IMG/VR virus record: IMGVR_UViG_3300024346_000005
Reading direction: 5' to 3' (one strand)
Source: a virus
Lineage: Duplodnaviria; Caudoviricetes
Length of the DNA stretch: 64,000 nucleotides
This document shows, piece after piece, positions 194 through 47,181 of this stretch (its first letter is position 1; each line of letters starts with the position of its first letter). Position numbers and translations under genes: made by a program. The notes below the pieces were generated by a model, which was not told the DNA's origin, did not search any database, and was given only the letters and a program-made list of their open reading frames with translations.

Positions 194-253
194 TGTCTAA
201 CTCGTAGAGGTTTAGATTTATATAAATAATTATAACCTTTTATGAGTTAGACA
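194..253 (+). promoter_or_regulatory. Late promoter TATAAATA (221-228) inside a ~19-bp hairpin that covers the leader of the downstream endonuclease
   Basis: TGTCTAACTCGTAGAGGTT (194-212) pairs with AACCTTTTATGAGTTAGACA (234-253), ending at the GTG start. Confidence 0.85.
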
Positions 254-16832: not shown

Positions 16833-17141
16833 ATGTCTTTCAAGTATAAAATAAGTCAGTCATACTGTTGGTATAATAACGGAAGTATGATTGTGAAAAT
16901 GTACTTCATCAACGAGATTCCATTTACCTTCGATGAATTACCTGACGGGCACTTATACGACCAAGACCTCTGTAGAACGGCAGATAAGTATCGTGCATAT
17001 GAACCAGATGATTTATTTAAGAACTCATTCTATCTTATAGACGAGGAAGCACACCCATTACTTTTTGATATGGACCTAGAAAACCCCCAAGACCTTCCAG
17101 ATGAAGGTTATGAGTTTTTGCGGCAGGACTTATCTTCATAA
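16833..17141 (+). CDS. Hypothetical protein
   Basis: ORF behind ATAAATA late promoter. Confidence 0.7.
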   Translation: MSFKYKISQSYCWYNNGSMIVKMYFINEIPFTFDELPDGHLYDQDLCRTADKYRAYEPDDLFKNSFYLIDEEAHPLLFDMDLENPQDLPDEGYEFLRQDLSS

Positions 17142-17235
17142 ATAATGGTGCTTATTCGTGGTTGTTTAGGCAAAGATTAAGGGGCAGAAATGCTCCTTTT
17201 CTTGTATAAATAAGTATAACCACGAATAAAGTAGA
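17138..17235 (+). ncRNA. Putative antisense small-RNA module controlling the downstream endonuclease (copy 1)
   Basis: ATAAATA, antisense arm 17149-17165, terminator 17181-17200, TATAAATA 17205-17212, target leader to 17233. Confidence 0.65.
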
Positions 17236-17781
17236 ATGAATAATTATTACACTTATGCATATTTGCGTGAAGATGGAACACCATATTATATCGGTAAAGG
17301 TAAAGCAGGTAGAATTAATAATACCTTACACACTATTCATCTTCCAGTAAAAGAAGAAAGAAGAATATTCTTAAAGAAAAATCTTACCGATGAAGAAGCA
17401 AGGAAGCACGAGATTTATATGATTGCTGTTTTAGGTAGAAAAGATTTAGGAACAGGAATTTTAAGAAATATGACCGATGGTGGGGAAGGTTGTGCCGGTC
17501 GTGTTTTAAGTGAAGAAACAAAAAAGAAGTTGAGTGATAGTCATAAAGGAAGAAAGAAAAGTGAGGCACACCGAAAAGCATTAAGTGAGGCGGCGAAGAA
17601 AAGAAAAGCAAGTGAAGAAACAAGAGAAAAAATGAGTAAAGTTTTTATGGGAGAAAATAATCCGTCTTTTGGGAAAAAGTGGTGGAATAATGGTGTAGAA
17701 AATAAACTCTGTAAAGAATGTCCCGGTGAAGAATATGTTTTAGGATTTCTGAACAAGTATTGGATGAATAAACATAAATAA
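17236..17781 (+). CDS. GIY-YIG homing endonuclease with NUMOD3 repeats
   Basis: [20 protein letters not shown]...R...E...LRNMTDGGEG. Confidence 0.9.
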   Translation: MNNYYTYAYLREDGTPYYIGKGKAGRINNTLHTIHLPVKEERRIFLKKNLTDEEARKHEIYMIAVLGRKDLGTGILRNMTDGGEGCAGRVLSEETKKKLSDSHKGRKKSEAHRKALSEAAKKRKASEETREKMSKVFMGENNPSFGKKWWNNGVENKLCKECPGEEYVLGFLNKYWMNKHK

Positions 17782-17808
17782 AACATATTAGGTATATTAG
17801 TAATAAAT

Positions 17809-31440: not shown

Positions 31441-31619
31441 AAGTAAAAACACTTGTGATACTAGAACAAGCGATTGAAGAAGGTGTGCGGCGTGGTTATC
31501 GTCGTGCTCATAAGCATATTGAGAACCCGACTGAAGAGTCTATCTGTGACCATATTGAAGAGTGTGTAATGGCACAAATTTACGAATACTTTACCTTTGA
31601 GGACGAAACTTATGTCTGA
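31437..31619 (+). CDS. Hypothetical protein
   Basis: ATGA overlap. Confidence 0.7.
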   Translation: MKVKTLVILEQAIEEGVRRGYRRAHKHIENPTEESICDHIEECVMAQIYEYFTFEDETYV

Positions 31620-31809
31620 ACGCTCACAAGCATTTATGAACGCAGTATGGGATTGTAGGAACAATCAAGGTGCTGATACTGAAGAGAAACTGGTTTCTGC
31701 AATCCTACAAGTTGCCGCAGAAACTGTAAGGTTTTATAATGCTCAAGACAATTTGATTGTTCTGGATAAAAATGATATGCTACAACTCGCACAGGAACTT
31801 GACGAATAA
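31612..31809 (+). CDS. Hypothetical protein (LA.ELE family)
   Basis: Shares pattern with 44332, 44535, 60114. Confidence 0.65.
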   Translation: MSERSQAFMNAVWDCRNNQGADTEEKLVSAILQVAAETVRFYNAQDNLIVLDKNDMLQLAQELDE

Positions 31810-31857
31810 TCAAAGTCTTGCTATGATAACTAAGTATCTGAACCACTTTGCCAATTT

Positions 31858-32049
31858 ATGATCAAACCCATTAAAGAAGAGTTTCCTCACGGAGATGGAT
31901 TTCCTATTAAAATAACTCATAAGGATGGTAAAGAACTAAAGGATTTCAAGACCTGCTATTTCCAGACCGAAGACCACGCTCAAAAGTACATTGCCCGTAA
32001 CAATTTCAAAAAGAAAGATTACACTATTATCTACAAGAACGAACAATGA
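31858..32049 (+). CDS. Hypothetical protein
   Basis: Behind TTGACG-17-TATGAT. Confidence 0.7.
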   Translation: MIKPIKEEFPHGDGFPIKITHKDGKELKDFKTCYFQTEDHAQKYIARNNFKKKDYTIIYKNEQ

Positions 32050-32154
32050 CCACACGCACTTATACTCAAAAAAACGAAAACCAATGGGAATGGGAAGAAA
32101 CTCCTGAAACCATTGAGGCACTTAAACAACTTCACGAAACAGTAAAAAAAGTAA

Positions 32155-32364
32155 ATGACGGAAAAAAAACTGATTGATGATTGCTTTTATATTGAAAAAG
32201 CAAGATGGGGTGTTTATCACTCTTATAATAAAGAAGAAAAACGACTCATTACATCACTGACCGAGGAAGGTTGTATTAATGCCACTAGGTACTATATGAA
32301 AGGTCTTCAAGAAGGATTTATGGAAGTAATTACTCATCAGGGAAGCGTGGATGGAAAACTCTGA
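32155..32364 (+). CDS. Hypothetical protein
   Basis: ORF track. Confidence 0.65.
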   Translation: MTEKKLIDDCFYIEKARWGVYHSYNKEEKRLITSLTEEGCINATRYYMKGLQEGFMEVITHQGSVDGKL

Positions 32365-32511
32365 TTATCCTTATCATACTCTGGACTCTACCACACCTTG
32401 GTATGAGTGGTTGTGCTACTCCGAAATTTGTCATCAACTGAATGTACCAAATCAACCAAGTGTCGGTAGATTTATGAGGTACAGACAATATCTTAAAGAA
32501 ATAGGAGTTTT

Positions 32512-32826
32512 GTGATGAGATTTAGATTATTTGATTGGTTTCTCAAAGATTATGAGATGCCTGACAAGTACAAACTTATCGTTTCTGATGAGCACGATAA
32601 TGAGTATTGTCTTGTAGGACTTTGTTCTTCTCTTGCCAAGCACGTTGCTATACTTGAAGAACGCATTACTACTCTGGAACAAAAGTATGAAGGTGCTCTT
32701 ATAGACATTAAGCGTCTTGAAGAAGAGAATGTAGAGACTACAAATTGTCTGTATGAAAATGCCAACTCTATAGATGCAGTTGATGCCCGTATAGATATTC
32801 TTGCCGAACATTATATGAATAAATAG
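32512..32826 (+). CDS. Hypothetical coiled-coil protein
   Basis: ORF track. Confidence 0.7.
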   Translation: MMRFRLFDWFLKDYEMPDKYKLIVSDEHDNEYCLVGLCSSLAKHVAILEERITTLEQKYEGALIDIKRLEEENVETTNCLYENANSIDAVDARIDILAEHYMNK

Positions 32827-32912
32827 TGATGCTTATTTGTGGTTATTTAAGCAGAATGGGGGCAGAAATGCTCCTTTCCTTGTATAAATAACTATAACCA
32901 CAAGTAAAGCAG
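32819..32912 (+). ncRNA. Putative antisense small-RNA module (copy 2)
   Basis: ATAAATA, antisense arm 32830-32846, GGGGC-AGAAAT-GCTCC terminator, TATAAATA 32883, target 32894-32911. Confidence 0.65.
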
Positions 32913-33513
32913 ATGGAATATTATACTTACGCTTATTTGCGTGAAGACGGCACACCTTATTATATTGGAAGGGGAAAGCATCAAAAAAAAATCAAAATAT
33001 AGAAGAATGAACACTAAATTTGGTCATAGTGTTTCTGTTCCAAATGAAAAAAGAAGAATTATACTAAAAGATAATCTTTCTCTTAACGATGCTAATAAAC
33101 ACGAAATTTATATGATTTTCATTTTCGGTAAAAAATATGACGGAACAGGTATATTGAGAAATCTTGTAGATGGTGGAACTGGTGGAGGTGTTGCTGGTAG
33201 AAAATTAAGTGAAGAAACAAAAAATAAAATAGGAAATGCAAATAGAGGTAAAACTCGTTCAGAAGAACATAGAAGAAAAAATGGTGAAGCAAAAAAAGGT
33301 AACACTAATTGGTTAGGTAAAACTCATTCAGAAGAAACTAAAGAAAAAATAAGAAATGTCCATAAAGGAAAACCATTTCCAGGAACTCATAATAATAATA
33401 AAGAAACAAAATGGTGGAATGATGGACAAATTAACAAAAGAAGTGTAGAATGTCCTGGTAAAGAATGGAAATCTGGAAGATTACCATTAAAACCCTATAA
33501 AAAGAGAAAATAA
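32913..33513 (+). pseudogene. GIY-YIG homing endonuclease split by a +1 frameshift in an A9 run
   Basis: ATG 32913 gives [26 protein letters not shown] then stop at 33000; rest continues in the +1 frame after A9 (32983-32991). Confidence 0.85.
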
Positions 33514-33514
33514 A

Positions 33515-33706
33515 ATGCCTTATGATAATTTAACAGAATATGAAAGAGCACTTGCCCGTTTTGGGGATAAAGTGGGTCTCATTGCGGGACTTGAAATATC
33601 TGATAAAATCTCACCTGAAGATGCGTATCAGCAAATCAAAATCTTATATAAAGAACTTAAGGCACTCCGTAAAGAAGAAAAGTCCGAGTGGAACACCCCA
33701 AACTAG
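33515..33706 (+). CDS. Hypothetical protein
   Basis: ORF track. Confidence 0.7.
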   Translation: MPYDNLTEYERALARFGDKVGLIAGLEISDKISPEDAYQQIKILYKELKALRKEEKSEWNTPN

Positions 33707-33798
33707 AGTCTGCTCCAAGTGTGGTGTAGAAAAACCACTTGACAAATCGAATTTTCAGGTGGTAAAATACTTTAAGCACAATTATTCTTATTACTGCA

Positions 33799-33987
33799 AT
33801 GAGTGTAACAAACCAAAACCAAGAGATTGATTCACTGAAAATTACTCAAAATGATGATGGGTCTTATGAAATGAGTTGGGACAAGGAAGACCCCAATTGG
33901 TCGTGGTTGAATAACTTGACAAGCAAAGAGATTCAGGTTATAGTACGAGAAGCAATCCAAGACAGACTGAACCAAAATGACGACTAA
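33799..33987 (+). CDS. Hypothetical protein
   Basis: ORF track. Confidence 0.65.
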   Translation: MSVTNQNQEIDSLKITQNDDGSYEMSWDKEDPNWSWLNNLTSKEIQVIVREAIQDRLNQNDD

Positions 33988-34549
33988 TTACCAAAAAATT
34001 TGGAATGTGATGAATGACCTAGAAATGGTCACCGCCAAAATTTCTTCTGCCCGTGAGATTTTGGATAGTGCTGTTGATAGACTTCAAGAGCATCAGTATG
34101 ATAAAGCAGAAACTCTTCTGTATGCTGCGGATGAATTTCTTCAGTATTACCTTGAAGACTTTGATAGGAAGTTTAAGGATGCCTGGAAAGAAACTGTAAC
34201 TAAAATCAATCAAGAAGAGACTGACGATTGTATGCCGCCTTGGGGGCACAGTGATTTGGAATATCTTTCTAATCTACCCCCAGAAGAACCTAAACAAGAT
34301 AAAGTAGTCAAGTGGCAACTTCCTGTTGAAGAAGGAACTGATTGTATAACCGGAGAGCAAGAATACTTTATCACATTCCCAGATGACTTGTTGGAAGCAG
34401 CAAATCTTTCTCCGGGTGATGAGGTGGAATGGGTGGATAATAATGATGGCAGTTTTCTTCTCCGCAAAATTACACAACCAAAAACTTATGATAAAATGGT
34501 TGCGGCAGGTTGGACTATGACTGCCGATGGTTTCTGGTTTAAAGAATGA
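33977..34549 (+). CDS. Protein with C-terminal AbrB/SpoVT-like DNA-binding domain
   Basis: YFITFPDDLLEAANLSPGDEVEWVDNNDGSFLLRK. Confidence 0.65.
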   Translation: MTTNYQKIWNVMNDLEMVTAKISSAREILDSAVDRLQEHQYDKAETLLYAADEFLQYYLEDFDRKFKDAWKETVTKINQEETDDCMPPWGHSDLEYLSNLPPEEPKQDKVVKWQLPVEEGTDCITGEQEYFITFPDDLLEAANLSPGDEVEWVDNNDGSFLLRKITQPKTYDKMVAAGWTMTADGFWFKE

Positions 34550-46377: not shown

Positions 46378-46485
46378 ATAAATAATGATGCTCTAATGTG
46401 TTCGCATCCATAAGAGTGGGAAGGGTGTCTTCGGGCACCTTTTCTTGTATAAATAGTATTGCGAACACAATTTAGAAGCAGAACT
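46378..46485 (+). ncRNA. Putative antisense small-RNA module (copy 3)
   Basis: ATAAATA, antisense arm 46389-46406, GGTGTC-TTCG-GGCACC terminator, TATAAATA 46448, target 46460-46480. Confidence 0.65.
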
Positions 46486-47181
46486 ATGGTAAATCCTAAT
46501 AGGTTTTATACTTACGCATATTTGCGTGAAGATAAGACACCTTATTATATTGGTAAAGGTAAAGGTAATAGGGCATATAAAAAGCATCGAAAAGGAATAG
46601 GTGTCCCAAAAGATAAATCGAGAATTATATTCCTCAAACAAAACTTAACCGAAGAAGAAGCATTTAGACACGAAATCTATATGATTGCTGTTTTTGGTAG
46701 GAAAGATTTGAGAACTGGTATTCTTCACAACCTTACAGATGGTGGTGATGGTGCTTCTGGATGGGTTCCAAGTGAAGAAACTAAAAGAAAACAAAGTGAA
46801 GTGAAAAAAGGTAATACTTATATGTTAGGTAAAACTCTTTCAGAAGAAACCAAAAGAAAAATGAGTGATACGCGAAAAGGTAAAACTCATTCAGAAGAAA
46901 CGAAAAGAAAACAAAGTGAGGTAAAGAAGGGTAAAACTTATTCGGAAGAAGCAAAAAGAAAAATGAGTGAGGCACATAAAGGTAAAACTCTTTCAGAAGA
47001 AACCAGAAGAAAAATGAGTGAGATACGAAAAGGTAAAACTCATTCAGAAGAAACTAAAAGAAAACAAAGTGAGGTAAAGAAGGGTAAAACTAAAGGTAAA
47101 AAGTGGTGGAATGATGGTTGTGGAAATTGTAAAAGGATGGTAGAATGTCCCGGTGATGGTTGGAGACTTGGAAGAAAATGA
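46486..47181 (+). CDS. GIY-YIG homing endonuclease with tandem NUMOD3 repeats (ATG 46486 preferred)
   Basis: [20 protein letters not shown]; about six SEET.RK.SE..KGKT units. Confidence 0.92.

Follow-up and report, generated by a model that had tools for sequence, protein, structure and literature searches.

A stretch of 64,000 nucleotides (nt) from the IMG/VR virus record IMGVR_UViG_3300024346_000005, a T4-like cyanophage, is referred to here as the window, and all positions follow its numbering. Between a 104-codon gene (32512–32826) and a GIY-YIG/NUMOD3 homing endonuclease gene starting at ATG 32913, the gap at 32819–32915 is occupied by a leader module that consists, from 5' to 3', of a late-promoter-like TAAATA box (box 1), a first arm (arm 1), a spacer, an intrinsic terminator hairpin, a second late promoter box (box 2) and a second arm (arm 2), all on the plus strand (Table 1). 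Box 1 overlaps the stop codon TAG (32824–32826) of the upstream gene. Arm 1 pairs with arm 2 at 17 positions, leaving a single A bulged near 32906, and so the positions and sequences of the two arms given in the original prediction, together with the single bulge, are borne out; a repeat search likewise returned the arm core, 14 nt long and 93% complementary. Since both arms are on the same strand, the pairing between them can be intramolecular. Arm 2, which contains the Shine–Dalgarno-like bases AAAG (32906–32909), stops 2 nt short of the ATG. A short local hairpin (hairpin 1) involves the first bases of arm 1 and holds the core of that arm in its loop. Since hairpin 1 and the base of the long stem between the arms use the same bases, the two helices are mutually exclusive, and both are conserved. 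Judging from the spacing, the predicted first transcribed base is G32831 for box 1, which is the sixth nucleotide after the box, and A32896 for box 2.

Table 1. Parts of the leader module and of the nuclease gene at 32512–33513, followed by related leaders elsewhere in the window
Feature	Position	Strand	Basis or remark
Box 1, TAAATA, late-promoter-like	32820–32825	+	AATAAATA from 32818
Arm 1, putative 5' masking arm, TGCTTATTTGTGGTTAT	32830–32846	+	Sequence, covariation
Hairpin 1, GCTTA (32831–32835) with TAAGC (32848–32852)	32831–32852	+	Fold of 32831–32881
Intrinsic terminator, 7-base-pair stem with GAAA loop (32858–32875), then T-rich tail	32858–32881	+	Terminator scan
Box 2, perfect T4-type late promoter TATAAATA, nested between the arms	32883–32890	+	Sequence
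Arm 2, leader of the nuclease messenger RNA, ATAACCACAAGTAAAGCA	32894–32911	+	Sequence, covariation
Nuclease gene, first piece, 29 codons with GIY-YIG N-terminal motif, then stop	32913–33002	+	Translation
A9 run, site of reading-frame loss	32983–32991	+	Sequence
Nuclease gene, second piece, +1 frame, two NUMOD3 motifs	32941–33513	+	Open reading frame list; Pfam NUMOD3, E = 6.4e-15
Copy 1 of the module, before an intact GIY-YIG/NUMOD3 gene (17236–17781)	17140–17241	+	104 bits
Third full module, unrelated arms, terminator GGGTGTC UUCG GGCACC, before a GIY-YIG-like gene (46486–47181)	46380–46488	+	
Plain T4-style mask, two 18–19 nt arms around TATAAATA (221–228)	194–252	+	

The module at 32819–32915 is the second copy of its kind in the window. 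The 19-nt terminator core is identical in copy 1 and copy 2 and occurs exactly twice in the window (17181 and 32859; 0.01 occurrences expected), and the unpaired spacer between arm 1 and the terminator has diverged by several substitutions and one indel, both in agreement with the original prediction. In an alignment made with MAFFT without any structure information (A2), five substitutions in the arms, distributed over four pairs, separate the copies, and no pair is broken. From copy 1 to copy 2, one C-G pair becomes U-A through changes on both sides, and the other three pairs change from U-A to U-G, from G-U to A-U and from G-U to G-C. The compensated pair had thus been described correctly, but the wobble said to neighbour it lies two positions away. 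One double change and three wobble changes in only two copies are a small sample, which leaves room for the reading that the module has no function, in which case a recent duplication would account for its complementarity and chance for the five compatible changes. The decisive test is therefore the larger alignments that had been named beforehand for this purpose.

When IMG/VR was scanned for the terminator loop together with TATAAATA, matches were found in at least 117 contigs, with 93 distinct full modules among the matches listed. In a plain MAFFT alignment of 66 modules, RNAalifold recovered only the terminator, and a column-wise search for covariation in the same alignment also failed. 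Since this failure arose from the misalignment of arms of different length, a length-homogeneous seed of 21 sequences, aligned with MAFFT and left unfitted (A2), and covariance models (R1 and R2) were used instead. In the A2 seed, 96% of the cells of the long stem are paired and 8 of its 17 pairs have changed on both sides; slid controls reach 39–60%, and shuffled controls never match either the paired share or the score. With the covariance model, 95.3% of the cells are paired across 94 modules and 23 of 24 pairs have changed on both sides (539 cells), compared with 30–57% in slid controls and with 0 of 500 shuffles reaching the observed values. Consistently, in 27 modules located through the nuclease protein alone, a sample unbiased toward any RNA sequence, 94.4% of the cells are paired, 19 of 24 pairs covary, among them 6 of the 7 terminator pairs, and 0 of 500 shuffles reach this level. 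Changes that break pairing are thus clearly not as frequent as those that keep it, the outcome that the original prediction had named as refuting it. The arms belong to more than a dozen unrelated sequence types, each with its own matching partner, and the median energy of the arm duplex is −22.2 kcal/mol for cognate arms versus −12.3 kcal/mol for non-cognate ones. These large alignments refute chance complementarity after duplication, to which next to no credence can be given. They strongly support the claim of the original prediction that pairing rather than sequence is under selection and that the RNA duplex is functional.

Complementary arms could also be an element of the DNA itself, such as an inverted repeat serving as a protein operator, or a recombination or cruciform site. 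There is a precedent in that I-TevI binds an operator overlapping its own late promoter and represses itself (PMC2988022), and the conserved boxes stand at the border of the cassette, with a 9-nt CATAAATAA at both ends of the copy 1 insertion suggesting recombination at promoter boxes. However, an operator would be expected to follow its protein, and the arms differ completely among modules and do not track the protein family: one family has different arms, and different families share arms. In addition, G-U cells are tolerated in excess over A-C cells (84 versus 35), which fits pairing of the plus-strand RNA, one or two bulges are kept at family-specific places, and a second, mutually exclusive helix also covaries. 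Since the arms do not follow the protein, G-U pairs are tolerated, the bulges are kept and the competing helix covaries, a purely DNA-level element is very improbable.

The position of the duplex suggests what it may do. Across the 94 modules arm 2 ends 2–8 nt before the ATG, and in the protein-anchored sample the end of the module coincides exactly with the start codon. In the fold of RNA from 32831 to 32940, the long stem encloses the terminator hairpin (z = −3.8; z = −5.4 for copy 1), and RNA from the predicted late start at 32896 has an open leader (z = −0.2). Hairpins that hide the ribosome-binding site and contain an internal late promoter precede I-TevI, I-TevII, I-TevIII, segB and mobE of Aeh1, and transcripts from the nested late promoter are free of the 5' arm and undergo translation; the T4 genes e, soc, 39, 25 and 26 also belong to the group with sequestering hairpins (PMC2988022). 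Since the arms flank TATAAATA and arm 2 covers Shine–Dalgarno-like bases near the ATG, the element belongs with these masking hairpins with a nested late promoter. It shares with the T-even masks the complementary arms around TATAAATA, the 3' arm over the ribosome site, a late start predicted to lie inside the structure and the free-standing GIY-YIG or HNH nuclease gene. It differs from them in having a terminator between the arms, a second TAAATA box 5 nt before arm 1 and a competing, covarying 5' hairpin, and in being portable, with many arm sequences and several gene families.

These observations lead to the hypothesis, which we favour with some reserve, that the module serves a free-standing homing endonuclease gene as its portable leader, with masking in cis as the core function. 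Because arm 2 holds the Shine–Dalgarno-like bases and ends 2 nt before the ATG, a duplex with arm 1 in the RNA would block the initiation of translation. Transcripts arriving from upstream would either stop at the terminator or read through it, and the read-through RNA would take the long-stem fold and remain silent. Late transcripts from the nested TATAAATA would start inside arm 2, lack arm 1 and so have an open leader. A tentative addition to this scheme is that an arm 1 RNA of about 50 nt, which is probably released, could mask the late messenger RNA (mRNA) in trans. The scheme supposes that both boxes are active promoters with starts as predicted and that the duplex keeps ribosomes away. 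What the comparisons show is the selection on pairing, the conserved terminator hairpin with its T run and the insertion of both copies together with the nuclease gene.

Several points weigh against masking in cis as the core function. Since the terminator lies between the arms, few upstream transcripts would hold both of them, and masking in cis could act only on read-through RNA. Such masking also leaves unexplained why about 90% of modules have a TAAATA box at constant spacing upstream of arm 1, and why the start of arm 1 takes part in a covarying local hairpin. As both boxes are late-type ones, there is no obvious need for the classical logic of silence early and opening late. Finally, no transcript ends come from the RNA contigs of four RNA runs, the listed pieces of which stop before the module and are thus uninformative on a small RNA.

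The upstream box, the competing 5' hairpin and the terminator between the arms are three features beyond a simple mask. A TAAATA box five bases before arm 1 is found in 84 of 93 modules, which were collected without reference to the box, and in all 27 protein-anchored modules, compared with only 1 of 13 terminator-plus-promoter sites without arms. Box 1 is followed by wTrrT, then G, then C, and box 2 by nTwwT and then a purine (85 of 93 modules), so that both boxes share nTnnT with a purine at the sixth nucleotide, the expected start of T4-type late transcripts; the purine after box 1 is at the same time the first base of hairpin 1. Of the two boxes, box 2 is always a perfect TATAAATA, whereas box 1 is so in only 14 of the 84 modules that have it. 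An 8-base-pair box is sufficient for T4-type late promoters, and variants at its first two positions are in use, namely A at −13 in T4 and a/gC at −13/−12 in Aeh1 (PMC2988020); the late-promoter consensus of cyanophages is NATAAATA (PMC2984593). The five pairs of hairpin 1 are 93.7% paired in 89 modules and all five covary, and a 5'-terminal stem is present in 88 of 93 minimum free energy folds compared with 52–63% in controls. The terminator stem varies in sequence among modules and stays a GC-rich hairpin with a T run.

Box 1 and the terminator therefore probably release arm 1 as a separate RNA of about 50 nt with a 5' hairpin and a terminator hairpin, a model made plausible by the conservation of exactly these three parts. 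The arms had originally been described as an antisense module; the duplex itself stands, and a separate small RNA does not follow from it, since arms on one strand fold as a single long hairpin in read-through RNA, as in the mechanism known from T4. Such an RNA could nevertheless act in trans as the primary regulator, a reading that we regard as a tentative one. Transcription from box 1 as a late promoter would start at G32831 and run through hairpin 1 to the terminator, and the loop and 5' end of the resulting RNA would be complementary to the first 18 or so nucleotides of the nuclease mRNA made from box 2, so that binding would lower its translation. With equal caution, the covarying 5' hairpin that excludes the long stem can be regarded as the free form of this RNA, and nature would have produced dozens of mutually orthogonal arm pairs. 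Each nuclease cassette would then carry its cognate RNA antidote, as in type I toxin–antitoxin pairs. In those pairs and in plasmid antisense systems (tisB/istR-1, hok/sok, CopA/CopT), a short terminator-ended RNA with a 5' stem-loop, encoded beside the gene for a harmful protein, is complementary to the translation start of its mRNA. The RNA predicted here differs in lying upstream on the same strand, so that action in cis is possible as well, and in being paired with a homing nuclease, not a membrane toxin.

Action in trans is favoured by the frequency and position of box 1, by the pattern shared between the two boxes, by the covariation of hairpin 1 and by an overall shape, a 5' stem-loop followed by a terminator, that is typical of small RNAs. 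Most modules that share a genome are orthogonal to one another, their cross duplexes having −4 to −13 kcal/mol compared with −18 to −25 kcal/mol for cognate ones. On the other hand, the metatranscriptome contigs of the region carry no transcript ends that would reveal the predicted RNA, and no convincing module is present in Syn9, P-SSM2 or S-PM2, the model cyanophages for which transcripts have been mapped. Imperfect copies of box 1 are common, as described above, and the use of box 1 as the stop codon of the upstream gene may add to its conservation. Copies 1 and 2 would cross-react, because their cross duplexes (−15.7 and −17.6 kcal/mol) are close to the cognate ones (−19.7 and −19.9 kcal/mol), and so the specificity between paralogous copies raised by the original prediction is weak for this pair. 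The orthogonality elsewhere may reflect only that one nuclease family seldom occurs twice in a genome. A crude search for modules that are opposed to their upstream neighbours, in which box 1 would be the sole source of arm 1, gave no clear case.

Comparison with relatives shows how the two copies arrived. The copy 1 site is empty in about 55 relatives, in which the upstream gene ends 23–46 nt before a fibre gene with no nuclease gene between them, and among 80 relatives examined it is filled, as in the window, only in L332. In the close relative IMGVR_UViG_3300042515_001753 (233,886 base pairs; L312, L393), both sites corresponding to 17141–17808 and 32810–33545 of the window are empty. Both copies are therefore insertions. 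In the empty allele of site 1, CATAAATA lies about 35 nt ahead of the fibre gene, and its upstream context is that of box 1 of copy 1; the filled allele has CATAAATAA at both ends of the insertion. This comparison indicates that box 1 of copy 1 shares sequence and upstream context with the sole late-promoter box before the fibre gene in nuclease-free relatives, which also speaks for box 1 as a promoter and hence for the release of a small RNA. At site 2 the stop and start codons of the flanking genes overlap in the empty allele, with no TAAATA. The filled allele diverges from 32810, and so box 1 came with the insertion and gives the upstream gene a new stop; at the 3' end the nuclease stop (33511–33513) is followed by a new ATG at 33515 for the downstream gene, and homology returns near 33545. 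According to one proposal, box 1 would in every case be the promoter that the displaced downstream gene already had; this fits site 1 and was rejected because it fails at site 2.

Other leaders of nuclease genes offer further comparisons. Dassa et al. (2009) reported hairpins in 15 of 16 5' untranslated regions of nuclease genes at 'fractured gene' loci from ocean metagenomes, ten of which include TATAAATA, and two mutually complementary motifs before free-standing nuclease genes (PMC2677866). These loci resemble the present ones in being environmental, probably cyanophage, nuclease leaders with TATAAATA hairpins; they differ in that a translational hairpin alone is described, and an upstream box, a terminator, an alternative hairpin and a small RNA all go unmentioned in the excerpted text of the article. 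Cyanophage S-PM2 encodes CfrI, an antisense RNA of about 225 nt that, in the excerpted account of Millard et al. (2010), lies on the opposite strand across the nuclease gene and psbA (PMC2984593). CfrI is thus likewise tied to a cyanophage homing endonuclease gene, although S-PM2 itself lacks a convincing module. The Rfam search gave no family match, its only hit being at chance level (E = 0.21), to an unrelated model and on the other strand. No description of an upstream box, an alternative hairpin or a small RNA in such leaders was found in the literature. PeSL (promoter-early stem-loop) cassettes, reportedly described in T4-type phages by Arbiol et al. in 2010, are said to combine early promoters with a stem-loop and are thought to be recombination sites. 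Like the present modules they are short, conserved promoter-plus-hairpin units, present in many copies per genome at the borders of genes that are mobile or optional; the modules here differ in having late-type promoters and arms complementary to the leader of their own gene.

The nuclease genes of copies 1 and 2 both match NUMOD3 in Pfam (E about 1e-15). Their proteins begin with the N-terminal YxYAYLRE...YYIGxGK motif, and the Pfam GIY-YIG model is matched only by the gene behind another module. The copy 2 gene is frame-broken: 29 codons are followed by the stop TAG at 33000–33002, and the remainder, with its NUMOD3 motifs intact, lies in the +1 frame. L040 and L094 have unbroken homologues. 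The break at the A9 run could be that of a recent pseudogene, a homopolymer assembly error or a site of slippage.

Two further leaders of nuclease genes lie in the window. With cross duplexes at −7 to −11 kcal/mol, the third full module is orthogonal to both copy 1 and copy 2, and the plain mask near the start of the window, which has neither a terminator nor box 1, precedes a fourth GIY-YIG-like gene running from GTG 254 to 979. The box TATAAATA occurs seven times in the window (221, 17205, 25542, 32883, 38746, 46448 and 50781), always on the plus strand; this number is not above chance (5.3 expected). Five of the seven, including 32883, begin 30–33 nt before a listed start codon, and that at 46448 is 38 nt before ATG 46486. 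The strand and spacing of the boxes are consistent with late promoters.

Behind the 93 modules there are mostly genes for nucleases (GIY-YIG, NUMOD3 and HNH-like) together with genes for small proteins of no recognised kind. Since one arm type stands before different genes and one gene family stands behind different arms, leader and gene recombine. One locus (L162:3016–3115) is an orphan 5' half with box 1, arm 1, the terminator and TATAAATA, and has neither arm 2 nor a nuclease gene. In another (L093:800–901), the two arms are of different types and form a duplex of only −14 kcal/mol, a mixture expected from recombination in the conserved core.

A megablast search of 31500–34500 against phage records gave no matches, and only with distant blastn did the module turn up, in Synechococcus phages B3, B23 and S-SRM01, the last of which carries at least six modules. 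The cyanophages with modules are both marine and freshwater, and the sample, of more than 117 viral contigs, includes the isolates S-SRM01 and B3. The stretch itself is contained in 16 DNA metagenome runs, and small shares of it are found in six RNA runs. The paper on S-SRM01 does not mention promoters, terminators or small RNAs; this phage is a culturable system carrying the module.

A homing endonuclease is tolerated only if it stays nearly silent, and for the way phages manage this there has been hardly any model other than T4. The present comparison shows that a large group of cyanophages uses one portable leader of about 100 nt before nuclease genes of several families. The mask known from T4 may thus recur here in a more elaborate form, possibly with the release of a small silencing RNA. 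The arms constitute a natural library of dozens of matched pairs, mostly without cross-pairing, so that the covariation support for an RNA mask is unusually clean and orthogonal translational silencers are at hand for tests. Should the small RNA exist, it would represent, in so far as the literature found shows, the first RNA regulator built into homing-endonuclease cassettes.

Related sequence elements also occur outside the modules. The true late genes of these phages have AAGGA-type sites 7–9 nt before the ATG. The combination of GGGGAGCAGAAATGCTCCCC and a T run joined to TATAAATA also precedes ordinary late genes (L204, L198, L142, L120, L135 and L007), which have strong AAGGA ribosome sites, and the terminator there is almost identical letter by letter across many contigs. 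Distant homologues of the nuclease (L279, L280, L284, L287, L290, L294, L304 and L307) have a different conserved leader, in which TAAATA is followed by a GTGTAGNTCGCG...ACTAC-type hairpin, CTCTAAC, AGGAG, CAGC and then the ATG, and which appears to represent a second family of nuclease leaders.

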